This document shows, in pieces, positions 7,987 through 38,485 of a DNA stretch of 40,720 nt. The position numbers and the translations under genes were made by a program. The notes beneath the pieces are model-generated. The model had not been told where the DNA came from. It saw only the letters and a list, made by a program, of their open reading frames with translations, and did not search any database. Source of the stretch: a virus (lineage: Duplodnaviria; Caudoviricetes); IMG/VR virus record IMGVR_UViG_3300036793_000091, positions 1 to 40,720 of that record, one strand, 5' to 3'. Numbering within the stretch: the first letter of the stretch is position 1; each line of letters begins with the position of its first letter.

Positions 7987-8547
7987 GTGGCTAATAAACG
8001 CGCAGACCTTACCCCGAAGGAACAGATTTTTATCCGCGAGTATTTGATCGATGGGAACGGCACAAGGGCAGCCATTGCAGCGGGTTACGCTGCAGCGAGT
8101 GCAGGGGTGGCGGCTTCCAAGCTGCTAAAGAAACCTAAGGTCAGCCAGGAACTACAGGCGCTCCGCGCCGGCTTGTGCGCGAAGCTCGAGATCACCGCCG
8201 AGCGCGTCCTGCAGGGCATCGCGCAGCTCGCTTTCTTCGATCCGCGGAAGTTCTACGCGGCCGATGGATCGCTCAAGCCGGTGATGGAGCTCGACGAGTT
8301 GACCGTCGCTTCGCTCCAGGGCATCGACGTGCAAAAGCTCTTCCGGCATTACGGCAAGGGCGCCTCGGAAGAGATCGGCACGCTCACGAAAATTAGATTC
8401 GCCGATCGCGGCTTAAACCTCGAGCGCCTCGGCCGCCACCTGAAGCTCTTCACCGACAAGCTCGAACTGAACAACAGCGACGCCATCATCGCAGCGCTGA
8501 AAGCCGGCCGAGCCCGCGTTGCCGAAGCAAAGAAAAAGAAATCATGA
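7987..8547 (+). CDS. terS: terminase small subunit
   Basis: LTPKEQIFIREYLIDGNGTRAAIAAGY...ASKLLKKP, ITAERVL..IAQLAF.D, LE.LGRHL.LF. Confidence 0.92.
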   Translation: MANKRADLTPKEQIFIREYLIDGNGTRAAIAAGYAAASAGVAASKLLKKPKVSQELQALRAGLCAKLEITAERVLQGIAQLAFFDPRKFYAADGSLKPVMELDELTVASLQGIDVQKLFRHYGKGASEEIGTLTKIRFADRGLNLERLGRHLKLFTDKLELNNSDAIIAALKAGRARVAEAKKKKS

Positions 8548-10073
8548 GCGCCGCCGCAGCCATCACCGAAGTTTTCAATACGGTCGATCCCGACGTCGCG
8601 CTGGCGCAGGAGATCGCGCAGTTCTACGAGGATCCCTTGGGCTTTGTGATGTTCGCCTACCCGTGGGGCGTGCCAGGCACGGAGCTCGAGGGCGAGATCG
8701 GACCGGACGAGAATCAGATTGAATTCCTCACCTCGCTTGGCGAGGAAGTAAGAAAGCGCGGCTTCGATGGGATGTTGCCGGTCCTGCCGATCCGCATGGC
8801 CGAGACGAGCGGACACGGCACCGGCAAATCCGCGCAAGGCGCCTGGATCGCCGACTGGATCCTCTTCACGCGGCCGCACTCGATCGGCACGGTCACCGCA
8901 GGCACATTTACGCAGCTCATGGACCGCACCTGGGCCGCGATTCGCCACTGGACAAAACTTTCCGTAGCGGCGCACTGGTTTGACATCCAGGCGCGATCGA
9001 TCCACCACAAGAAGCACCCGGAGAGCTGGAAGGTCGTCGCGCAAACTTGCAAAGAGCAGAACGCGCAATCGTTCGCCGGCCAGCACGCGAAGACGTCGAC
9101 GAGCTGGTATTTGTTCGACGAGGCCTCGGAAGTTCCGGACAAGATCTGGGAGACGGCTGAAGGCGGACTCACCGACGGCGAGCCGATGATCTTCGCGTGG
9201 GGCCAGCCGGTCCGCAACTCCGGCGAGTTCTACGTCATCAACTTCGGCAAAAAGAAACCGCGATGGAACACTCGCCGCGTCGACTCCCGCACCAGCCGCT
9301 TCACGAACCTCGATCTCATCAAGCAGTGGATCTCCGATTACGGCATCGATAGCGACTTCTGTAAGGTCCGCATCCTCGGCCAGCCGCCCTCCGCATCCGA
9401 ACTCCAATACATCGATAAGGCCCGCGTCGAAGCCGCGCGTCGCCGGACAGTGGCAGCACTGCCCGATGATGCCCTCGTCGCGGGCTTTGACGTTTCTGGT
9501 GGAGGTCTCGCGTGGAACGTAATCCGCTTCCGCCGCGGGCTCGATGGCAAACCGACCGACGCCGCCGGCAACGTCATCAAGCCGATCCGGATCCCAGGCG
9601 AGCACGATGTCGATCGATCACAGCGTGTCGGGATCTGCGCCGAGCTGCTGAAAGATCGCAGGCCTGGCCGTCAGCTCGCAGCGATGTTCGTCGACTCGGC
9701 CTTCGGCGCCGTGATCGTCTCGCGGCTGAGAGCCCTCGGCTTCACGAATGTGCATGAAGTGAACTTCGGCGGCGCGAGCCCCGATATCCACTGCTTGAAT
9801 ATGCGGGCTTACATGCACATGAAGGCGAAAGAATGGCTGCTCCTCGGTTGCCTTCCCGATGATGACGACCTATGTGAGCAGCTGAGCATTGCCGGGTATC
9901 ACATCAACAATTCCGGCAAGCTCGTGATCGAATCGAAGGAAAGCATCATCGCCCGTGGCGAGAAGAGCCCGGACGATTCCGACTCTTTCATTTTGACCTG
10001 GGCGCAGTCAGTAGCGCCGCCGAAACTTCCTTCCCGTTCTTCTGCACCGAAACGACACTCAGCCTGGGGATAA
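8544..10073 (+). CDS. terL: terminase large subunit
   Basis: Walker A SGHGTGKS, Walker B YLFDEAS, RNase H-like GFDVSGGG...VDS...SPDDSD. Confidence 0.95.
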   Translation: MSAAAAITEVFNTVDPDVALAQEIAQFYEDPLGFVMFAYPWGVPGTELEGEIGPDENQIEFLTSLGEEVRKRGFDGMLPVLPIRMAETSGHGTGKSAQGAWIADWILFTRPHSIGTVTAGTFTQLMDRTWAAIRHWTKLSVAAHWFDIQARSIHHKKHPESWKVVAQTCKEQNAQSFAGQHAKTSTSWYLFDEASEVPDKIWETAEGGLTDGEPMIFAWGQPVRNSGEFYVINFGKKKPRWNTRRVDSRTSRFTNLDLIKQWISDYGIDSDFCKVRILGQPPSASELQYIDKARVEAARRRTVAALPDDALVAGFDVSGGGLAWNVIRFRRGLDGKPTDAAGNVIKPIRIPGEHDVDRSQRVGICAELLKDRRPGRQLAAMFVDSAFGAVIVSRLRALGFTNVHEVNFGGASPDIHCLNMRAYMHMKAKEWLLLGCLPDDDDLCEQLSIAGYHINNSGKLVIESKESIIARGEKSPDDSDSFILTWAQSVAPPKLPSRSSAPKRHSAWG

Positions 10074-10077
10074 CGAC

Positions 10078-10509
10078 ATGATGCCGATGGGAATGCCGAA
10101 TGGAATGCCGCAAGGACGTCCGATGCCGAACGTGTTCGCGCAACGCATGGGAATGCCGGCCGCGGGCGTGCCCGGAGCTCCTGCCGCCGCCTCGGCAATG
10201 CCGCCCGCAGGAATGCCTGGCGCGCCCGCTCCTGCTCCCACTCCTGCACCGATGATGAGCTCGGGAATGACAGGTGCACCGCCGATGAACACATTCGCCG
10301 CGCGTCCGGTGATGGCGCCAGGCGCGATGATGCCGCCACCAGGCGCGCCCGGTGCACCGCAGATGGGCGCACCGTCAATGGGCGCTCCAACGATGGGCGC
10401 CCCGGGAATGATGGGCGCTCCGATGATGCCGCCCGGAGGCCTGCAGCACCCGATGATGCAGGGCGCGCAGAACTTCCTGCGCCAACGCCTCGGAATGCCG
10501 AGTTACTAA
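10078..10509 (+). CDS. Met/Pro/Gly-rich low-complexity protein
   Basis: ~27 Met, MGAP tandem repeats, no D/E/K; fills the gap exactly between terL and the next ATG. Confidence 0.7.
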   Translation: MMPMGMPNGMPQGRPMPNVFAQRMGMPAAGVPGAPAAASAMPPAGMPGAPAPAPTPAPMMSSGMTGAPPMNTFAARPVMAPGAMMPPPGAPGAPQMGAPSMGAPTMGAPGMMGAPMMPPGGLQHPMMQGAQNFLRQRLGMPSY

Positions 10510-10621: not shown

Positions 10622-10842
10622 CCAGACCTCTTTTCTCAATCTATTTACCCGACGGGCGCTGCTACGACGTAACCGCCGGACGTGCCTATCAGGTAACCGC
10701 GATAGAAGGCGCTCACATTCCGCCGTTTGTCGAGAAGCCCATCGCAATTCTCAGCAAAGGTGATCGGGCTGAATTTCTCGAAGTTCTCAACATTTGCAAG
10801 GACATCACCGAACGAATTCAGGAAAAGGACAAAACTTTATGA
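10618..10842 (+). CDS. hypothetical protein
   Basis: ATGA-coupled to the remnant above and to 10839. Confidence 0.5.
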   Translation: MTRPLFSIYLPDGRCYDVTAGRAYQVTAIEGAHIPPFVEKPIAILSKGDRAEFLEVLNICKDITERIQEKDKTL

Positions 10843-11303
10843 CACTGCTCGCAGCTCTATTGCTCAACCATTCCGCGGCCGCTGTACTGGTATCGGTAGC
10901 GATGGCCCTCGGATTTGCTGGCCTCTTCGCCACCGTGCAGCTCGCTCAGGGCGCCTTCACGACCGACGCCATCAACAAACTACTTGCCGGAGACTTTCTT
11001 CCGATCGCAGCGAGCGGCGTCGTCGATCCACACACCCCAGCGCGCTACGTGATTACAAAGGCCGGCGTCGCCGCGCTCACTTTAAAGGCGCCTGTAGCCG
11101 GCGCCGAAGATGGCCTTTTGATTGAGATCACCTCGACGACTGCGAACGCTCACACCCTGACAACCGTCGCGCTATTCCGCAACGGAGGCGCGAATACGAA
11201 CGTCGCGACCTTTGCCGCGGTCGATGGCGCCTCGATCCTGCTCTGCGCCTACAACGGCAAGTGGTACGTGCAGGGCTCGCAGAACGTGACCTTAACCAGT
11301 TAA
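10839..11303 (+). CDS. beta-rich fibre/decoration-like protein with hydrophobic N-terminal export/anchor segment
   Basis: AGGA RBS; long hydrophobic leader ending QLA|Q; ALTL.AP..G.EDG..I.ITS...AHT...G.S..L.AYNGKWYV. Confidence 0.65.
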   Translation: MTLLAALLLNHSAAAVLVSVAMALGFAGLFATVQLAQGAFTTDAINKLLAGDFLPIAASGVVDPHTPARYVITKAGVAALTLKAPVAGAEDGLLIEITSTTANAHTLTTVALFRNGGANTNVATFAAVDGASILLCAYNGKWYVQGSQNVTLTS

Positions 11304-11407
11304 CGAACTTTTTCCGGCTCGTCTCCACAACTTAATCAGACCAACGCCGGAATCAGAAAGGGGCGGGGCTCCCGCATGGCCGTGCCCCGGTTTAAAGGAA
11401 GGAAATA

Positions 11408-11920
11408 ATGCTGACGTCAAGCGAGCTAGAACTCGAGATCGAAAGGCTCACCGTCTCCAAAGAGGCGCTGACTGCGTTCGTGCGCCGCGTGGCCGGCGCC
11501 TTTTCTCGGGCGCTCACCATTGCCGGAGTTGAGTTTCACGCTATTAATGGCCCCGATCATTACCATGGCGATGGCTTCGACGAGGTCGCAAGGCTTAGCG
11601 CTAGGCCAAATGACACTGGCTGGGACTTTCAGGTCTCCGACACAATGAAGTGGGAAACTGGGGATGCCGCTCCGGAGATGATCAGTTGCACGAGTCTTTC
11701 CGACTCCGAGCTGGCGCGGATCGCCGATCTCTGGGCGACGAACATCGCGGCAAGGAGCAAGCGTGTCGCCTTCGCAAATCTATACAAGCCGAAAGCGGTC
11801 GAAATGGCCGAGCGCTACAACGATCTTCGCGTCGCTTTCCGTGTAATCCGCGCATGGGACCCCGTGTTTGGCGGCTACATTCTCCGCTTCGATTCAGTCT
11901 TTAAAAAACTCGACGTGTGA
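11408..11920 (+). CDS. truncated paralogue of the P22-type coat protein
   Basis: AAGGAAGG RBS; C-terminal YKPKAVE...RVIRAWDPVFGGYILRFDSV aligns with coat YLPKSVE...RFVKAWDPVRSMQIHRFDTV. Confidence 0.7.
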   Translation: MLTSSELELEIERLTVSKEALTAFVRRVAGAFSRALTIAGVEFHAINGPDHYHGDGFDEVARLSARPNDTGWDFQVSDTMKWETGDAAPEMISCTSLSDSELARIADLWATNIAARSKRVAFANLYKPKAVEMAERYNDLRVAFRVIRAWDPVFGGYILRFDSVFKKLDV

Positions 11921-11931
11921 CAAGGAGCACT

Positions 11932-12201
11932 ATGAGCAATAAAAGCAAAGGACACCTGCGCCGGCTCGAAATCGAAGTCCATCGCGAGCCCGCGACCAAG
12001 GGCGGCGGGCCTGGCAAGGTAACCGGCCACACCGTTCACCACTACATGGAGCCGAGCGCTGCCTCGTCGAAATCGGGCGCCTTCATGGAGCACGGCCATC
12101 ACTCCCAGCCCTTCAGTAAAAACGAGCACGAAGCGATGCTCGATCACGTCATGGAACATCTCGGCGGCGAAGGCGAGAGCAAAGACGAAGCCGAAGAGTA
12201 A
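11932..12201 (+). CDS. His-rich small protein
   Basis: AAGGAG RBS; GHTVHHY...EHGHHSQPF...EH..MLDHVMEHLG; acidic tail. Confidence 0.7.
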   Translation: MSNKSKGHLRRLEIEVHREPATKGGGPGKVTGHTVHHYMEPSAASSKSGAFMEHGHHSQPFSKNEHEAMLDHVMEHLGGEGESKDEAEE

Positions 12202-12253: not shown

Positions 12254-12934
12254 ATGCCAAAACAACTCACCCGCACGCAGTTGAATCACGAGCTGAAGAA
12301 GCTCGGCTTCGGAGGCCTCGAGGACCGCAATCTCATGCAGCAGCTCGCGTGTTGTTATCAAACGCACGAGCAGTTTCGCGGCATGTTGATGTCGACGGTC
12401 CCGGAGCAGCGCCGTAACGCCTATGAAGCGATAGCCCCGCATTTGAGCTTTCGGCCGAAGCCGCTCGATGTCTACGAAATGGAGATGCGGAGCAAAGCCG
12501 AGCGCGAGCAGCTGCCCGGCTACAACCCAACGACCGGCGAAATCATTCCCTTCAAAGTGCCGGAGATTTCACTCGAGGACATGGCGCAGGAAGCGATCGC
12601 GCAGAACCAGCACGAAAAAGACGGCGGCCTGTCGCTTGTCTGCACGAAATGCACGGTCGAACAAATCTTCCGCGCGAAGACGCGCAAACAGGCCTACAAG
12701 GACGCCGATCGTGAAGGCTGGCGCATGCAGGGCACGAAAGCCTATTGCCCGCAGCACGTGCCGACGCGGCTCACAATGACGCTCTCCTGCTCCGATCCCG
12801 ATTGCGGTCGCACCGAGAAAGTGCGCGCCTGGGACGAGCAGGACGGCTACCGCAGGGCGCGGTTGATGGGCTGGGTCATTGAGGACGCAGCAACGTGTCC
12901 GAGATGCGCAGCGAAGACGATTGTCATTCAGTGA
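12254..12934 (+). CDS. protein with tandem duplicated Zn-ribbon domains
   Basis: LVCTKC...EGW...YCPQH and LSCSDPDC...MGW...TCPRC. Confidence 0.75.
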   Translation: MPKQLTRTQLNHELKKLGFGGLEDRNLMQQLACCYQTHEQFRGMLMSTVPEQRRNAYEAIAPHLSFRPKPLDVYEMEMRSKAEREQLPGYNPTTGEIIPFKVPEISLEDMAQEAIAQNQHEKDGGLSLVCTKCTVEQIFRAKTRKQAYKDADREGWRMQGTKAYCPQHVPTRLTMTLSCSDPDCGRTEKVRAWDEQDGYRRARLMGWVIEDAATCPRCAAKTIVIQ

Positions 12935-13080
12935 TGTCGCAACCTACTCCCACTATTCCGATGCCGGCGCGCACACAGGAGCTCGCTTGCGGCAAATGCG
13001 GGCGCCCGGTCCTTGTATCGACGCGGACGATCCTCGCCTTCTGCCGTGATTGCTCAGCGACGCTCGGAGTCAAGCGCTAG
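12934..13080 (+). CDS. small Zn-ribbon protein
   Basis: CGKCG...FCRDC; TGATG coupling. Confidence 0.6.
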   Translation: MSQPTPTIPMPARTQELACGKCGRPVLVSTRTILAFCRDCSATLGVKR

Positions 13081-13367
13081 CGCCTGTTTACGCCGGCGAT
13101 TGAGAACACGTCGCCCCGCTTCAAGATTTGAGGGTCGGCGGTAATAGCGGTGACGATGCTCCTGGACGGGTTCCCGACAAACTCGACAACTCTATATTCA
13201 ATGAACTTCGGATCGACAAACGTCTCGACGATCGTGAAAAGCCTCGGGAATCGCGGGACGACGATCTCTTTCGGAAACGACCACACACGATTAAACGGAA
13301 TGGCCTGATCGAGCGCAATGCCCGCCACTCCTCCAGCGATTAACCGCATGAAGCCACGCCGATCCAT
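13077..13367 (-). CDS. Tat-signal small protein ending in a coat I-domain-like motif
   Basis: MDRRGFMRLIAGGVAGIAL twin-arginine signal; C-terminal LKRGDVFSIAGVN. Confidence 0.65.
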   Translation of the reverse strand: MDRRGFMRLIAGGVAGIALDQAIPFNRVWSFPKEIVVPRFPRLFTIVETFVDPKFIEYRVVEFVGNPSRSIVTAITADPQILKRGDVFSIAGVNRR

Positions 13368-13383: not shown

Positions 13384-15627
13384 ATGTCCACACTCGACCC
13401 GAAAGAGATTCGCGAAACCTACTCCGATTTCCGCTCGGAGTGGCAGCCCGTCCGCGACGAAGCCGGGCTCGACATGCAGGCCATCAGCATTGAAGGCCCG
13501 TGGACCGACGACGATCGCGCCGCCCGCGAAGATGCCGGCCGACCGTGTATCCATCTCGACCAGATCAATCAGTATCTGCATCAGTACACCGGGAACCTCC
13601 GCAAAACGAAGCGCGCCATTCAGGTCACACCGAAGGGCAACGGCGCAAACGATGCCGACGCAAAGAAGCGATCGAGCGTCATTCGTGGGATCGAGGAGAA
13701 ATCGAACGCGCCGACGGCCGTCTACATCCCGGCCGCGGAATCCGCCGCGCAGCGCAGCTACGGCTACGCCGTCATCCGCACCGATTACAAGGACGAAGAG
13801 AGCTTCGACCAGGAAATTCTCGTCAAGCCGATCGCAAATCCGGATTGCGTGCTGCTGAGCCCCTATTACAAGCAACCGAACGCCTCCGACGTCGAAGAGG
13901 CCTTCCTGCTCGAGCCGATCACGAAAAAAGATTTCAAGGCGCAGCATCCGAAGGCGAAGATCACGGACTTCGATGGCGAAGAGATGCAGGGCTGGGGCGT
14001 CTCCGACTGGGTCAAAGAGAACTATGTCATGCGCGCCGAGTATTGGAAGATCGAGCACGATCAGCGCACCTTGCTCCTGATTAAGACGCCCGAAGGGACC
14101 TCGATCGCCTGGGAAGATGAGCTCAAGAACCGCGACCGCGGCGGCCGCTTCAAAAATGTCCGCAACGGAATCGAAGTCTTACGCGAGCGCGATGTCATGA
14201 TCCCGCGCGTCGTGCAGCGCCTGACGAACGGCCTCGAGGTCCTCGACGAGATTCCCTGGCACGGCTCGCGCATCCCGATCATCTCTTGTTTCGGCCCGGA
14301 GCGATGGCGCACGATCGGCGGCCGAGCCCAGCGGCAATTGCTCTCGCTTGTCCGCTTCGCGCGCGATCCGCAGATGCTCTTCGATTTTCTCGCCACCTGT
14401 GAGTGTGAAGTAGCGGGGCAGGTCCCGAAGGTCCCCTTTGTCGGCTACAAAGGGCAATTCGAAAGCGATCGCGACGTGTGGGAGGAACTCACGAAGGTCC
14501 CTCACGCCTTCGTCCAGGCGGACATCGTCCTCGATGCCGGCACAAACGCGCCGCTGCCCCTGCCGACAAAGCCCAACTGGGAGCCGAATTTCCAGACCTA
14601 CGAGATCGCGAAAGATTCTGCCGGCCGATCACTCCAGTCCTCGATGGGCATCAGCCCGCTGCCGACCGCCGCGCAACGCTCGAACCAAAAATCAGGCGTC
14701 GCACTCGAGAAGATTCAGGACGAAGAGGACATCGGCACTCATCAGTTTCTCGACAACTTCGAAAACGGCTTCCTGCACAACATGGGCTGGCAGATCAATG
14801 AGCTCATCACCCCGATCATGGACACCCAGAGCGAGATGCCGATCGCGCAGCCCGATGGCACGCGGAAGACGCTGCACCTCGTCGGCAAAACCTCGCACCC
14901 GCTGCAGGAAGACGGCTCGTACGAAGTCCAGGGTGTCCCGGACGATCACCTGCACACGGCGAAAGGCGACTTCGATGTCACGATCGCCTCCGGGCCGAGT
15001 TATGACTCCGAACGCGACGAGCAATCGCAATTTGTCGACTCGATGGTCGACAACCTTCCGAACTTGCCGCCGCCTGGCTCACCCGCGGGAAAAGTTTTGG
15101 CGCTCGCGATCCGCATGCGTCCGAACCTCGGGCCGATCGGCCAGCAGATCGCCGACGTCTTCGATCCGCCGGATCCGTCAAATCTGCCGCCTGAAGCACA
15201 GGCCGTCATCACGCAGCTCAAAGGCCAGATGCAGCAGCTGCAGCAGGAGAACACCGCGCTCCACATGGACCGCGCCGGCCGCGTCCTCGAGCAGCAGACG
15301 AAATTGAAGATCGAAACCATGCGCGGGCAGCATTCGCTCGACGCGAAGACGATCGACTACATCACGCAGATCGTGAAGGCGGAGCTCGCGAAGGGATCGA
15401 AGGCGGAAACCTTAAAAGCGCAGACCGATGCCAATCGAGAGCTCGTTAAGCTCGGCTTCAATCATGACCAGATCGATCGCGCCCACGACGCTGCGCATGA
15501 AGTTGCAATGAGCGGAGTCGAACACGCGCGAGCGCAGGAAATGCAGCAACAGGCAGCGGCTAACCAGCAGTCGGCGGATCCGGCGGCAGCGCAGCCGCAG
15601 ACTCCGGAACAACAACCGGCCACTTAA
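13384..15627 (+). CDS. portal protein (P22-like)
   Basis: 747 aa; W...R..R...GRPC...D.I, G.GY..I, IPII, LVR.ARDPQ..F, SGVAL, G.FDV.I..GPSY.S.R, Q-rich C-terminal barrel. Confidence 0.93.
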   Translation: MSTLDPKEIRETYSDFRSEWQPVRDEAGLDMQAISIEGPWTDDDRAAREDAGRPCIHLDQINQYLHQYTGNLRKTKRAIQVTPKGNGANDADAKKRSSVIRGIEEKSNAPTAVYIPAAESAAQRSYGYAVIRTDYKDEESFDQEILVKPIANPDCVLLSPYYKQPNASDVEEAFLLEPITKKDFKAQHPKAKITDFDGEEMQGWGVSDWVKENYVMRAEYWKIEHDQRTLLLIKTPEGTSIAWEDELKNRDRGGRFKNVRNGIEVLRERDVMIPRVVQRLTNGLEVLDEIPWHGSRIPIISCFGPERWRTIGGRAQRQLLSLVRFARDPQMLFDFLATCECEVAGQVPKVPFVGYKGQFESDRDVWEELTKVPHAFVQADIVLDAGTNAPLPLPTKPNWEPNFQTYEIAKDSAGRSLQSSMGISPLPTAAQRSNQKSGVALEKIQDEEDIGTHQFLDNFENGFLHNMGWQINELITPIMDTQSEMPIAQPDGTRKTLHLVGKTSHPLQEDGSYEVQGVPDDHLHTAKGDFDVTIASGPSYDSERDEQSQFVDSMVDNLPNLPPPGSPAGKVLALAIRMRPNLGPIGQQIADVFDPPDPSNLPPEAQAVITQLKGQMQQLQQENTALHMDRAGRVLEQQTKLKIETMRGQHSLDAKTIDYITQIVKAELAKGSKAETLKAQTDANRELVKLGFNHDQIDRAHDAAHEVAMSGVEHARAQEMQQQAAANQQSADPAAAQPQTPEQQPAT

Positions 15628-15742: not shown

Positions 15743-15807
15743 CGCCCGACTTTAGCACCTTCGCCCGCCGCTGCGTCATGCGGCAGAACCACCAAGGAAA
15801 ACAAGCC

Positions 15808-16890
15808 ATGAGCACACTCGCCGTTACTCCGGCCGCCTCGGCAGCGGCCGCCACCACAGTCGACACCACGGAACGCCACGCGGAATTTCTTCCGACCGAT
15901 CGCAACTATCGCATGACGGGAGAACTGCCCGCCGCTTCCGGCGAAAAAGATGACGCCTCGCAAACGTCGGAAAAAGAAACGAAGGACAATTCGTCGCAGG
16001 ACAATTCGTCAGAGAAGGTGGACGCCTCGGCAGCGGCCAGCGACGCCGAAAAAGCAGCGGCCTCGGAAGCCGCATCCGCGCAGAAGGATAAACCAGCGAC
16101 CGAAAATCGCTTTCAGAAGCTCAGCCGCGAGAACAAAGAGCTGCGCGAACGTCTGAACCGCCTCGAATCGGCCCAACCTCGTCGTGACAATCCGCAGGCC
16201 TCGCAACCTGCCGCCGATCAAAAGACGGAAACAGCCGCCGCGCAACCGAAGGCCGCACCGAAACCGAAGATCGATGACGTCGACCCGAAGACGAGCCAGC
16301 CGAAATACAAAACTTTCGCCGAGTACGAAGAGGCGAAGGATGAGTGGAACCGGAAGGAAGCGATTCGGGAATTTCAGGAAACGACTGCGAAGACGCAGCG
16401 CGAGCAGAACCTCGCGCACTCGAAGCAGGTCATCGCCCAGGAATTCGGAAAACGCGTCGAAGCCGCGCGTGCCAAATACGCCGACTTTGACGAAGTGGCC
16501 CTCAACCCGGACCTGCCCATCAAGGAAGGTTCGCCCGTCGACATCTTCACGCTCGATTCGGCGAATGGGACCGACGTCCTCCAGTTCCTCGGGAAAAATC
16601 CGGGCGAGCTCGATCGCATTAACAAGCTGAGCCCTGTGGCGCAGATTCGCGAGCTCACGAAGATCGAGCTCGAAGTCTCGAAAGTGGCGGCGAAACCCAC
16701 TGCTGCAGTTGCTGGCGAAAATCCCTCTGCAAAACCTGTCACCCAGGCCGGCCGGCCTCCACACCAACTTTCCGGAAAAGGAACCGTGACGAAAGACGCG
16801 GTGGAGCAGGCGGTCGAAGACGGCGACCAGGACACCTACATGCGCGAGCAAACCGCGCGGGACCTGGCTCGCAGACGCAAAGGAAAATAA
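15808..16890 (+). CDS. capsid scaffolding protein
   Basis: Between portal and coat; AAGGA RBS; charged coiled coil, RF..L, Y.DFDEV, L.K.P.EL.RI..L.P..Q.REL..IE. Confidence 0.88.
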   Translation: MSTLAVTPAASAAAATTVDTTERHAEFLPTDRNYRMTGELPAASGEKDDASQTSEKETKDNSSQDNSSEKVDASAAASDAEKAAASEAASAQKDKPATENRFQKLSRENKELRERLNRLESAQPRRDNPQASQPAADQKTETAAAQPKAAPKPKIDDVDPKTSQPKYKTFAEYEEAKDEWNRKEAIREFQETTAKTQREQNLAHSKQVIAQEFGKRVEAARAKYADFDEVALNPDLPIKEGSPVDIFTLDSANGTDVLQFLGKNPGELDRINKLSPVAQIRELTKIELEVSKVAAKPTAAVAGENPSAKPVTQAGRPPHQLSGKGTVTKDAVEQAVEDGDQDTYMREQTARDLARRRKGK

Positions 16891-16891
16891 T

Positions 16892-18130
16892 ATGCCGAAC
16901 CAGTTTTTGAACACTTCCTGGATCTCCATGGAAGTGCTCCGCAACCTGAAGAACGCGATCAAGGTGATCGAGTACTTCAACTCCGACTGGGAGAAGGACT
17001 ATACGAAGACCTTCGCCGTCGGATCAACGGTCCAGATCAAATTCCCGCAACAGTTCCTCATTCGCGATGGTCTGAACTACAACCCGCAAGGCATCAACCG
17101 CCTCACCACCACCGTTTCGCTCGATCAGCCCTTTGGTATCGACTTCCAGTGGGACGATTACGAAGCGGCCGTCAAGGCGGAGCGCTCGGAAGAGGAGATC
17201 AAAGAGCAGTACCTCAATCCGGCCGGCGTGCAGATCGCACAGGAGATCGATTCCCGCGCGGCTCTCTTCGCTAAAAACAACACCTCGCAGATCGCTGGCA
17301 TCCTCGGCACCGATCCGACGAGCGTCGCGTACCTCGATATCGCCCGCGCCCGCTTGCTCCAGAAGGCTGCGCCGCAGACGAAGCGTTGTGCATTGATTTC
17401 TTCCTCGATGCAGAACAACTCGATCAATACGCCCGTCACGAGCCTTTTTCACCCATCGGATGAAATCACCATGGCCTTCAAGGAAGGCGCGCTCGGCCGT
17501 CTCAAGGGCTTCGACGTGTTTGAAGAGCAGGCGCTCTACTCACACACCGCTGGCACCTGGGCTGGCGCAGTCACCGTCAACGGCGGCGGCCAATCAGGCA
17601 CAAACCTGATCGTCACTGCGACCGCTGGCGATACGTTCAATAAGGGCGACAAGATCGCGGTCCTGAACGTGAACATGGTCAACCCGCGCACTCGGCGCTC
17701 GCCTGGGCCGAAGACGCAGCAGACGTTCACCGTCACGCAGGACGTGGTCTGTGTCGGCGGCGGCGTCGACGTGATTCCAATCCTGCCCGCGATGCGCGGT
17801 CCTGGCGATCCTTACCAGACGATCGATGCATTGCCCGCAGCCGGCGCTGCGCTCACGCTGTGGCCCGGAACCTCAAACCCGAACGGCGTTTCCGGCACTT
17901 TCGGACTCGCACTGACGAAGCAGGCATTCGCTGTAGTTGGAATGCGCTTCTATCTGCCGAAGTCGGTCGAGGCCCGCAGCCAGGCTGAAGACAAGGCGAC
18001 CGGAATCCCGGTGCGCTTCGTTAAGGCGTGGGATCCGGTCCGCTCGATGCAGATCCACCGCTTCGACACGGTCTGCGGATTCGGCAACCTGTATCAAGAC
18101 AACGGGGCCGTCGGCCTCCTTGGAGCCTAA
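16892..18130 (+). CDS. major capsid protein (P22 gp5/coat family)
   Basis: N.FL..SWIS.E.L..L.N, G.TV.I..P, L.PA..QIA..ID, I-domain GD...VNP, RFD...GF. Confidence 0.93.
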   Translation: MPNQFLNTSWISMEVLRNLKNAIKVIEYFNSDWEKDYTKTFAVGSTVQIKFPQQFLIRDGLNYNPQGINRLTTTVSLDQPFGIDFQWDDYEAAVKAERSEEEIKEQYLNPAGVQIAQEIDSRAALFAKNNTSQIAGILGTDPTSVAYLDIARARLLQKAAPQTKRCALISSSMQNNSINTPVTSLFHPSDEITMAFKEGALGRLKGFDVFEEQALYSHTAGTWAGAVTVNGGGQSGTNLIVTATAGDTFNKGDKIAVLNVNMVNPRTRRSPGPKTQQTFTVTQDVVCVGGGVDVIPILPAMRGPGDPYQTIDALPAAGAALTLWPGTSNPNGVSGTFGLALTKQAFAVVGMRFYLPKSVEARSQAEDKATGIPVRFVKAWDPVRSMQIHRFDTVCGFGNLYQDNGAVGLLGA

Positions 18131-20562: not shown

Positions 20563-20778
20563 ATGCCTGAGAATCCAAAGAACATTCTGACGCTCACTCT
20601 TCGCCTGCACGATCCGGACGAAAAGCAAAACGCTGATCTCTCGACGTCGTGGGTGGTCGTCTCCGTCCCGCGCGAGAACCTGAAGCTCTCGCAGCCGGAT
20701 TTCATCGCGAAATATATCGTGCCGGCACTCGGAGAACTGAAGCAGATCGCCGTGGCAGCAGAAAGCAAACTGCCTTAA
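20563..20778 (+). CDS. hypothetical protein
   Basis: AGGA RBS; fills gap in tail operon. Confidence 0.6.
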   Translation: MPENPKNILTLTLRLHDPDEKQNADLSTSWVVVSVPRENLKLSQPDFIAKYIVPALGELKQIAVAAESKLP

Positions 20779-35936: not shown

Positions 35937-36758
35937 ATGGCATCAACAGCGAGATCATACCGCGATTCCGGTGACCTTAAAAGCGCGAATTTCGCGCCTC
36001 CAGAGTCGTCTCCGCTCGTGCGCCGCATCGACTGTTCCCGCCTTCGCGGATGGCTCGGATCGAAGAACATCGACCGCAAAAATCTCGATCCGCTACGCGA
36101 AACGCTGAAGTGCTTTGTCATCGTCTCGCAGCAGGGTCCAGATTTTTTTGCCTCGACTTTCGGCGTGAGCATACAGTCCGGGCGCTCCTATCGCACCGTG
36201 CAGCGCCACATCGATCGGTTGTGCGAATTGAAAGTGTTGAAGCTCAAGCACGAAGCGAACTCGCTCGTCGGGAATTCGCTCCGTCGTCCAGCGACTTATG
36301 TCCTCCACGAGGAAGCCGGGAAACTTCTGTCGCCCGCCGAAACCTACGAGGAGTGGAAGCGGCGCCACGGACGATCAGCCATCAGGCGCTTCGGGCCACA
36401 GCGCGTCACTCGTCCAGTTCAGGGCGAAGCATCGGCTCCAGCCGAGCCGCTGAAAGCGGCGCCCGAAGAGCGTCCGCACCGATCAGGCGCACGTCCGCAG
36501 CCGAAGCTGTCGAAGACCGAATGCGCGAAATTCATGGCCGACATGGCCGTGCTGACGACGGGCGCCACGGGTCACAAGCAACTCGACGGCTACTACGTCG
36601 ATTACTTACGCGATCCCGATCATCCCGATCCACGCTATCGCCCGAAGATGAAATGGGGCGAAGCTCTCGAAGCAACGTGCAAGCTGTGGAAGCGCACGCA
36701 GGAGTCGGTGAACGATGCGTTGAAGTTTTGGGGCTTCCAGATCGAGGGCGACTCGTGA
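35937..36758 (+). CDS. winged-helix protein, candidate replication initiator
   Basis: SGRSYRTVQRHIDRLCELKVL....N....RRPATYVL wHTH; upstream of ATPase; near iterons. Confidence 0.7.
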   Translation: MASTARSYRDSGDLKSANFAPPESSPLVRRIDCSRLRGWLGSKNIDRKNLDPLRETLKCFVIVSQQGPDFFASTFGVSIQSGRSYRTVQRHIDRLCELKVLKLKHEANSLVGNSLRRPATYVLHEEAGKLLSPAETYEEWKRRHGRSAIRRFGPQRVTRPVQGEASAPAEPLKAAPEERPHRSGARPQPKLSKTECAKFMADMAVLTTGATGHKQLDGYYVDYLRDPDHPDPRYRPKMKWGEALEATCKLWKRTQESVNDALKFWGFQIEGDS

Positions 36759-38485
36759 GCCGGCTACCTTTCCCGGAGCGGATCCTCGGACAACACATCG
36801 CGGCGCTCGGAAAAACCGGATCCGGAAAATCCTCCGTGTTGCGTGTGATCGCCGAGTTCCAGCTCGACAAAAAGCGCCGCGTCGTCATCGTCGATCCGAA
36901 GGGCGATTGGTGGGGATTGAAATCTTCGGCCGACGGCAAGGGCGCTGGCTACCCCGTCATCATGTTCGGCGACTTCAAAGAGCCGCGGGCGTCGGACGTT
37001 CCGATCAATGAGACCTCCGGCAAACACGTTGCTGAATTGATCGCGACCGGAAACCGGCCGTGTGTCATAGGCTTTCGCGGGTGGATGCCGGCGCAGCTCA
37101 CGCGCTTCTGGCTTGAATTTGCAGCCGCGCTCTTCAACAGCAACGAAGGCGAGCTCTACGTCCTGATCGACGAAGTTCACAACTTCGCACCGAAGGGCAA
37201 GATCCTCGATCCGAACGCCGGCAAGTGTCTGCACTGGACGAACCGGATCATGAGCGAAGGCCGCGGGCTCGGGCTGACGTTCTACATCGCATCGCAGCGG
37301 CCGCAGAAGGTGCACAACGACACGCTCGACAACTGCGAGACGCTGATCGCCATGCGTGTCACACACCCGCGATCGCGCGAAGCCGCGGTTGAATGGATCA
37401 ACGCTAAAGGCGACAAGGAGCTCGGCAAAGAAGTCATCTCGACGCTCGCCGAACTCAAGCGCGGTGAAGCCTGGGTGTGGTCGCCCGAAAATGGCTTCGG
37501 CCCTTCGCGTGTGCAATTTCCGATGTTCTCGACCTTCGATTCTTTTGCGCCGCCCCAGCTGCAAAAGAAAGTCTCACAGGCGGGATGGTCCGAAGTCGAT
37601 CTCGACCAGGTGAAAGAGAAGCTCGCCGCGGTCATCGCGGAAGCAAAGGCGAATGATCCGCGGGAGTTGAAAGCCGAGCTCGCGCGGCTTCGACAGGAGC
37701 TCGCGAAAAAACATCCGGCGCCGGCGCTCCCGAGGACAATGCCCGCGGATCCGAAAGCGATCGAGCGCGCCGTCGCGAGTGCACTGAAAAAGCGCGACGG
37801 AGATTGGTTGCGATCGGTGCGGGACCTGCAGCGTTCGATCGAGCAGATATTGGGCGCACGCACACGCGATCTCGTCGGAGCGATCAGTGCGGTTAAATTC
37901 GCCGCTCCGGATCCGGCCGCGATCGAGATCCCGCCGGCGCCCGTCGTTTCCCTTCCGACGCCGGCGATCGCGCTCGGGATTCTGCCGCATCGCGAGCCCG
38001 CGGAATCAAACGGTTCGCTCGCCGCCGGCGAAAAAGCAATTCTCTTAGCGGCCGCGCAATGTCACCCCGCCGATCGCACGCAGCTGACGGTCCTCACCGG
38101 CTACAAGCGATCGACGCGGAATCGCTACATCCAATTCCTGCAGCAGAAAGGCTACGTCGAAGTGGAAGGCGAACAAGTTAAACCGACCGCTGCCGGCATG
38201 GCTGCGCTCGGCTCTGACTATGAGCCGCTGCCGACTGGAAGCGAGCTGCAGAAATATTGGCTCGAACGCTTGCCCGCCGGCGAGAAACACATTCTCGCAT
38301 TCGTGCTGCAGCATGGCGGCCAGAAAGTGAATCGCGAGGCCATCGGCGAAGCTACCGGCTATCAGCGCTCAACGCGCAATCGCTACATCCAGTATCTGCA
38401 GGCGCGGCACTTGCTGAAAGATGGCAGCGGACCGGTCGAGCCGGACGAAATGCTCTTCGATGGCGCCGTAGCGAGGCACGCATGA
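36755..38485 (+). CDS. HerA/FtsK-superfamily ATPase (DUF87-like) with coiled coil and two tandem C-terminal winged helices
   Basis: GTGA-coupled start; GKTGSGKS, IVDPKGDW, VLIDEVH, GRGLG, SQRP; repeats TGYKRSTRNRYIQFL / TGYQRSTRNRYIQYL. Confidence 0.88.
   Translation: MSRLPFPERILGQHIAALGKTGSGKSSVLRVIAEFQLDKKRRVVIVDPKGDWWGLKSSADGKGAGYPVIMFGDFKEPRASDVPINETSGKHVAELIATGNRPCVIGFRGWMPAQLTRFWLEFAAALFNSNEGELYVLIDEVHNFAPKGKILDPNAGKCLHWTNRIMSEGRGLGLTFYIASQRPQKVHNDTLDNCETLIAMRVTHPRSREAAVEWINAKGDKELGKEVISTLAELKRGEAWVWSPENGFGPSRVQFPMFSTFDSFAPPQLQKKVSQAGWSEVDLDQVKEKLAAVIAEAKANDPRELKAELARLRQELAKKHPAPALPRTMPADPKAIERAVASALKKRDGDWLRSVRDLQRSIEQILGARTRDLVGAISAVKFAAPDPAAIEIPPAPVVSLPTPAIALGILPHREPAESNGSLAAGEKAILLAAAQCHPADRTQLTVLTGYKRSTRNRYIQFLQQKGYVEVEGEQVKPTAAGMAALGSDYEPLPTGSELQKYWLERLPAGEKHILAFVLQHGGQKVNREAIGEATGYQRSTRNRYIQYLQARHLLKDGSGPVEPDEMLFDGAVARHA

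Follow-up and report, generated by a model that had tools for sequence, protein, structure and literature searches.

The window analysed here, which is the whole stretch of DNA at its full length of 40,720 nucleotides, comes from an uncultured, P22-like soil phage. Its terminase, portal and scaffold genes were assigned by Pfam and PHROGs annotation, and the major coat protein is of the P22 type (PF11651, E 2.4e-23). An additional gene, located between those for the large terminase and the portal, codes for a 170-aa paralogue of this coat. The relevant features are as follows.

7987-8547: small terminase (Pfam/PHROGs annotation)
8544-10073: large terminase (Pfam/PHROGs annotation)
11396-11403, + strand: ribosome-binding-site-like sequence AGGAAGGA, directly 5' of the 170-aa ORF
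11408-11920, + strand: the 170-aa gene, an intact ORF with an ATG start, coding for a predicted N-arm helix and P-domain core of an HK97/P22-type coat
11459-11521, + strand: predicted helix 18-38, which holds the invariant Arg27 and probably corresponds to the N-arm helix of the coat as posed in the procapsid
11702-11755, + strand: predicted helix 99-116, which probably corresponds to the initial half of the spine helix (weak sequence support)
11741-11899, + strand: residues 112-164, the C-terminal strands of the P-domain, in which the motifs YxPKAVE and AWDPV-x6-RFD lie
13077-13367, - strand: a gene with a twin-arginine-like leader and a tail that weakly resembles the coat I-domain (7-12 bits), representing a second class of coat-fragment genes
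13384-15627: P22-type portal (Pfam/PHROGs annotation)
15778-16890: scaffold (Pfam/PHROGs annotation)
16892-18130, + strand: P22-type major coat protein of 412 aa, with the segment matching the 170-aa protein at 17909-18073

Several other genes surround these features. The large terminase gene is followed by a low-complexity ORF rich in Met, Pro and Gly (10078-10509, +), and similar ORFs are found nearby in related loci L011, L015, L020, L034 and L046. Three unannotated genes between terminase and portal (10794-11303, 11917-12201 and 12254-12934, all +) are conserved in many relatives. The last of these carries Cys-x2-Cys motifs and is present in nearly all loci covering its slot. At position 12197, contigs from two runs, possibly including the source run, carry 28 extra bases, and the window may contain a mis-assembly or a deletion at the end of the ORF at 11917-12201. 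Farther downstream, an 811-aa HerA/FtsK-like ATPase with C-terminal winged-helix domains is encoded at 36050-38485 (+).

The original prediction held that the 170-aa gene has an intact frame with a strong ribosome-binding site and that its C-terminus matches the coat. The intact frame and the ribosome-binding-site-like AGGAAGGA upstream confirm the first point, and pairwise comparison, which had been proposed as a check, confirms the second. BLASTP aligns the protein with its own coat at E 1e-6 (24/87 identities). The family profile matches the coat profile with a probability of 97.8% (E 1.3e-12), placing residues 112-164 of the ORF on residues 340-394 of the coat over 53 columns, and the spacing within AWDPV-x6-RFD is equal in the two proteins. 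The likeness of the product to the coat exceeds chance.

Database searches with the 170-aa protein gave no match in Pfam or PADLOC, and none of the 27 family members yields a Pfam coat hit (PF11651, E 0.1). Its sole PHROGs match is a weak one to phrog_31803, a family of unknown function (E 0.02, residues 101-168), and PDB sequence searches returned nothing better than E 0.48. A single match in an annotated phage collection was judged to be due to chance, and the ESM Atlas offered no usable feature match for two family members.

An AlphaFold2 model made from 27 sequences has a compact alpha/beta architecture (pLDDT 91.5, pTM 0.85). When it was compared with 48,161 representative chains, the top eight matches were all HK97-fold proteins (lambda gpE at Z 5.7, encapsulins, CUS-3, P22, Sf6 and YSD1), as were 29 of the top 50 judged from their titles, and no Z among these representatives reaches 8. 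A second ranking, obtained by re-aligning Foldseek's top 1000 chains, places the P22 procapsid coat 8i1v first (Z 8.9, rmsd 3.4, 125 aligned residues, model 14-170 on chain 2-416) and a P22 virus-like particle second (Z 7.8), with the first non-HK97 row appearing at Z 4.7. Foldseek run against the PDB lists nothing at E <= 0.001, with HK97 coats among its top rows over about 50 columns. The structural comparison suggested at the outset supports an HK97 fold for the model. Mature P22, Sf6 and CUS-3 subunits reach Z 4.9-5.9, and their alignments either omit the first 33 residues or have an rmsd near 6 or more. A preference for the procapsid over the mature form is predicted in this way, from the model and the alignment end-points only.

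Because the superposition runs from residue 14 to residue 170 of the model, almost all of the protein is predicted to derive from the coat, consisting of an N-arm helix and a P-domain core. Judged from alignment ranges and secondary structure, the predicted layout begins with an extra helix (5-16) and an N-arm-like helix (18-38). A short hairpin then stands where the coat has its E-loop, and a spine-like helix (99-116) leads to the P-domain strands of the C-terminus. The N-terminal half scores 23.9 against the first 135 residues of the coat (E 0.0016; maximum of 15.9 among 74 null windows), but an unrelated neighbouring gene scores 24.3 against the whole coat. Given this weak sequence support, the coat assignment of the N-terminal half rests on structure. 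The earlier suggestion that the likeness extends into the spine helix survives in part, in that the register of ADLWATNIAARS on GVQIAQEIDSRA is recovered by way of a distant subfamily, but the alignment is weak (E 0.069).

The protein is 242 residues shorter than the coat, in line with the earlier estimate that about 240 residues including the I-domain are missing. That estimate understated which domains are gone. Since the HK97 superposition takes in the N-terminal half as well, the loss extends beyond the I-domain to the A-domain and, probably, to most of the E-loop. The profile of the N-terminal half stays at background (8.5-9.4) on coat windows 91-360, the C-terminal half maps to coat 340-394, and 170 residues are too few to hold an A-domain. 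Likewise, coat 226-360 gave no match that would correspond to an I-domain, for which the protein is also too short. The E-loop looks shortened, with only a short hairpin at residues 59-77 of the model, and an IRDGL-like motif occurs in 11 of 24 members.

The 170-aa protein has 23 full-length homologues of 167-177 aa that share 32-76% identity, and all 24 family proteins are mildly acidic (pI 5.0-6.6). A distant subfamily is formed by three proteins of 153-158 aa that align with the family over 152 columns at 99.7% probability. One distant member of 224 aa (P0025) is fused to a crAss001_48 domain (PF21825). Profile searching across 1.84 billion representatives, with any length allowed, gave 19 matches, and thus fused forms are rare at that sensitivity. 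The crAss001_48 domain also occurs as a free-standing ORF in an equivalent slot of one related locus (L020:2802-3008, +). Relatives were found neither in GTDB genome contigs nor in five viral scans that used the query or subfamily alignments. Shorter proteins resembling the C-terminal part include A0A6J5NY35 in BFVD, a stand-alone protein of 116 aa (E 2.2e-4), and an 84-aa cluster in the ESM Atlas that falls below the naming threshold of that tool.

Among the four members with DNA sequences, pN is 0.24-0.49 versus a pS of 0.68-0.84 in all six pairs, and dN/dS is 0.16-0.35 where the correction is finite, three pairs being saturated. The family is under purifying selection, and the view of this gene as conserved rather than decayed, reached originally from the sequence of a single copy, holds across its homologues. 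Together with the profile match and the predicted structure, this selection also supports the proposal that the product is an HK97-fold fragment lacking all but the P-domain, to which the predicted N-arm helix is now added.

A decaying coat duplicate, or a chance likeness, could account for the lack of Pfam coat hits among the 27 members and of a Foldseek PDB match at E <= 0.001. However, the 24 sequences are intact and nearly constant in length, the protein is conserved even though synonymous sites have almost saturated, the family has strong support as a branch (see below), and its predicted HK97-like fold is a confident one. This explanation is largely refuted, and we regard it as very improbable.

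The origin of the family was examined with a tree of 56 C-terminal columns, a small alignment for which long branches call for caution. The 24 members lie on one side of a branch with support of 100/98, and the family groups with the coats of its own lineage against 10 distant P22-type coats (99/97). Residues of the lineage coats are retained at Tyr126 (24/24), Lys129 (20/24), Glu132 (16/24), Trp150 (19/24) and Ser155 (18/24). Each is present in 19 of 19 near coats, and none is typical of the 10 distant coats. When 52 coats are ranked by C-terminal local score, the own coat comes 23rd for the window, 33rd for L020 and 7th for L034. The C-terminus of the protein does not track its own coat, and on these ranks we reject a recent duplication from that coat. 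The tree grouping, the kept lineage residues and the absence of tracking point instead to one old duplication inside the lineage. The family is derived from the P22 coat family but is not a member of it.

The P-domain core might also have been adopted as a small scaffold for some non-capsid job, such as binding another phage protein or a host protein. This would suit the conserved polar residues that the family has on its own and the coat lacks (Arg27, His44, Asn47, Asp99-Ser100-Glu101 and Asn138-Asp139), the extra N-terminal helix, the long stem branch of the family in the C-terminal tree, and the fusion of one distant member to crAss001_48. However, the coat-like part (residues 119-170) is the best-conserved portion of the protein, with column conservation of 0.66-0.68 versus 0.39-0.59 elsewhere, and it keeps coat residues of the lineage. 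We consider this explanation improbable and rank it below the two structural roles discussed next.

We compared 24 related loci that span the region from large terminase to portal, leaving out the window and three duplicates (L044, L045 and L049), with some near-copies still among them. A clear orthologue is found in only two (L020 and L034) and a divergent member in one other (L011), and so the gene is accessory. Among the loci left out, L049 is a Terriglobales provirus that also has a divergent member. The orthologues are 41-44% identical to the 170-aa protein, and the coats of the same relatives are 68-76% identical. All four DNA contexts place the gene after the large terminase and on the strand of the head operon, and in three it precedes the portal, the fourth contig (L046) ending before that point. 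Neither a sigma-70-like promoter nor conserved DNA was found upstream of the gene, which leaves independent, moron-like expression without support. A strain that is about 96% identical on both flanks diverges at position 11388 into a different ribosome-binding site and an M-L-T start, which hints, in a single contig, at a divergent allele of the gene.

The region or parts of it are present in four runs, all of which are soil metagenomes, one possibly being its source; no RNA dataset is listed among them. As for the host, close coats come both from a MAG of the Terriglobales (76%) and from a contig of a Betaproteobacteria MAG (78%). No family member was found in 400 sampled genomes from the class of the Terriglobales MAG.

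These contexts bear on two roles that had been proposed for the protein. An inhibitor of competing phages, taken to mean a lysogen product that blocks superinfection, is made less likely by placement on the head-operon strand and by the lack of a sigma-70-like promoter. A nucleation factor with an essential role is argued against by the absence of the gene from 21-22 of the 24 relatives.

The protein could serve in the virion as a minor component that plugs portal-adjacent three-fold sites, where a penton P-domain is missing, or other three-fold sites. Such sites are common places for reinforcement of HK97 capsids (bioRxiv 10.1101/2022.09.09.507160), and a P-domain unit of conserved length (167-177 aa) encoded near the portal in a late operon would be well suited to them. 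However, only two of 24 relatives that share the portal and coat have a clear orthologue, the protein diverges far faster than structural genes, and the model matches the procapsid rather than the mature subunit. We judge a virion role to be quite unlikely.

A further explanation is that the protein modulates assembly or terminates chains, docking on growing procapsids via its P-domain and taking contacts from neighbours while giving none. It could thereby tune assembly of its own phage or poison that of co-infecting relatives. Resemblance of the model to the procapsid pose, retention of the P-domain strands and lineage residues, and location in the head operon are all in keeping with this function. 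Moreover, P-loops meet at the three-fold axes of the capsid (bioRxiv 10.1101/2022.09.09.507160), and the capsid homologue Ccm of SaPIbov5 illustrates that such proteins can redirect assembly (PMC8569155). Against this, a poison made alongside its own coat would hurt the phage that encodes it, and most relatives assemble without the protein. In addition, the invariant Arg27 falls on Glu/Asp14 of the coat in a low-confidence alignment (16% probability). By number this is the P22 N-arm Asp14, which is reported to bind the basic helix-turn-helix of the scaffold (bioRxiv 10.1101/2022.12.13.520362). Provided that this register and the matching by number are correct, the charge of the scaffold site would be reversed, which makes it unlikely that scaffold recruits the protein. 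A co-folded model with the last 45 residues of the scaffold scored 0.01, which speaks neither for nor against such recruitment. Overall, a role in assembly seems unlikely, although we place it ahead of the virion component.

The 170-aa family is not the only coat-like piece in this lineage. Nineteen short ORFs in 16 of 44 loci match coat profiles at 11 bits or more, compared with none of 14,027 reversed ORFs, in a count that leaves out one coat cut by a contig end. Many of these genes are on the opposite strand and join a constant twin-arginine-like leader to a variable piece of coat, which can be the N-arm, the E-loop base, the spine start, the I-domain or the AWDP turn. Of 21 rows that bear the leader, 14 reach at least 6.5 bits, or 12 of 18 once duplicate loci are removed, whereas the maximum in 420 shuffles is 1.9. 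The leader is absent from the 170-aa protein, as the leader profile found 21 ORFs and 11408-11920 is not one of them.

Additional candidates are less clear. A conserved 71-aa gene (20563-20778, +) located between the head-tail adaptor and head closure genes ends in a helix with some likeness to the beginning of the coat spine helix (profile score 28.9, E 0.0005, probability 30%), and it is possibly a third coat-like piece or a product of chance. Four leaderless small ORFs (L011:4735-5274, +; L028:12829-13212, -; L041:1867-2235, +; L034:14926-15393, -) have coat-like C-terminal strands and are more divergent than the 170-aa family.

Bacterial immunity has one of its main triggers in major capsid proteins, which mutate only with difficulty. 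A capsid look-alike made by the phage would thus be an obvious counter-move. We rank first the possibility that the 170-aa protein is a decoy for capsid-sensing immunity of the host that acts inside the infected cell, because the gene is dispensable, diverges quickly, is likely co-expressed with the coat and keeps lineage residues, in a lineage where many pieces of the coat are sampled. We nevertheless hold this reading only tentatively, and it may well prove wrong.

As a decoy, the protein would presumably be made late, from one transcript with the portal, scaffold and coat genes and upstream of them. The prediction is of a soluble protein that copies the base of the capsid subunit, does not assemble and could not close capsomers. 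Capsomers are centred on the A-domain, with P-domains and P-loops converging at the three-fold axes (bioRxiv 10.1101/2022.09.09.507160), so a protein with this domain content would be unable to build a shell. It would then bind a host capsid sensor without activating it, offering the P-loop face of an unassembled subunit while missing the second surface needed for the trigger.

Sensors of the HK97 fold have been described. Avs7, Avs8 and Avs10 are reported to wrap or recognise this fold, and Avs7 grips mainly the A-domain (bioRxiv 10.64898/2026.01.04.697583). In staphylococcal Thoeris, the E-loop serves for ThsB1 binding and the P-loop for ThsB2 recruitment on a proposed monomer, and ThsB2, which depends on the P-loop, did not by itself copurify head protein (PMC12578639). 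These two systems are no obvious targets, since Avs7 would need mainly the missing A-domain and ThsB2 alone did not bring down the head protein. Still, a subunit with only one of the two faces could bind a sensor without triggering it. The kept lineage residues could reflect fold constraints or coat-coat contacts, and in the latter case they would fit the assembly explanations equally well.

Full-text searches, covering mostly openly accessible papers, found no experimental precedent for a capsid-fragment decoy, nor was one found in the accessible portion of a review (PMC13728456). Another report (10.1101/2023.04.06.535777) was considered as a precedent and set aside, as the 'decoy' it describes belongs to host-side immunity and is not relevant.

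A broader proposal, which we find doubtful, is that the lineage runs an arsenal of capsid-epitope decoys in which a folded, monomeric P-domain mimic and the export-leader genes, each displaying another piece of the coat, jam host receptors for the HK97 fold. If true, the trigger of defence would itself have been turned into a counter-defence, with the 170-aa protein as a minimal soluble core of the HK97 fold in its procapsid state. For tests of the capsid look-alike idea, the family provides 24 natural variants of a small protein whose predicted fold is confident. The protein is also likely to be a soluble reagent for mapping the coat surfaces that are read by sensors and scaffolds.

Among known systems, the closest comparison is with the P22-type coat gp5 (PF11651), for which the structures compared were the P22 procapsid (8i1v) and mature form (5uu5), CUS-3 (8skg) and Sf6 (5l35). 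By prediction, the 170-aa protein shares with this coat the N-arm helix, a portion of the spine helix and the P-domain strands at the C-terminus, and its last 53 columns are homologous to its own coat. It differs in being 170 rather than about 412-430 residues long, in lacking the A- and I-domains, and in having an apparently short E-loop, an extra N-terminal helix, accessory status and no Pfam match.

SaPIbov5 Ccm is likewise a capsid homologue that exists alongside a true capsid protein and could act on assembly. However, Ccm is encoded by a satellite and forms shell pentamers (PMC8569155), whereas the 170-aa protein is encoded by a phage and has no pentamer-closing domain. A pentamer-forming satellite product of the Ccm type is not what we find, as the A-domain is absent and the phage has its own terminase, portal, scaffold and coat. 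Full-text searches of the same kind and coverage found no description of a phage capsid paralogue consisting of only a P-domain.

Family 4 'A-domain encapsulins' (PF08967/DUF1884, PDB 2PK8) offer another parallel. They too are stand-alone, heavily shortened pieces of the HK97 fold, and their function is described as unknown (PMC8346489). These proteins retain only the A-domain and are found in cellular operons with enzymes (PMC8346489), whereas the 170-aa protein has the N-arm and P-domain and is part of a phage head operon. No DUF1884 match was obtained for the 27 family members, and the sequence maps to the N- and C-terminal parts of the coat rather than to its middle. The model suggests that the N-arm and P-domain of the HK97 fold can stand alone as a unit of 170 residues. 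Such a unit would be the mirror image of the A-domain-only encapsulins and bears on the modular evolution of the HK97 fold.
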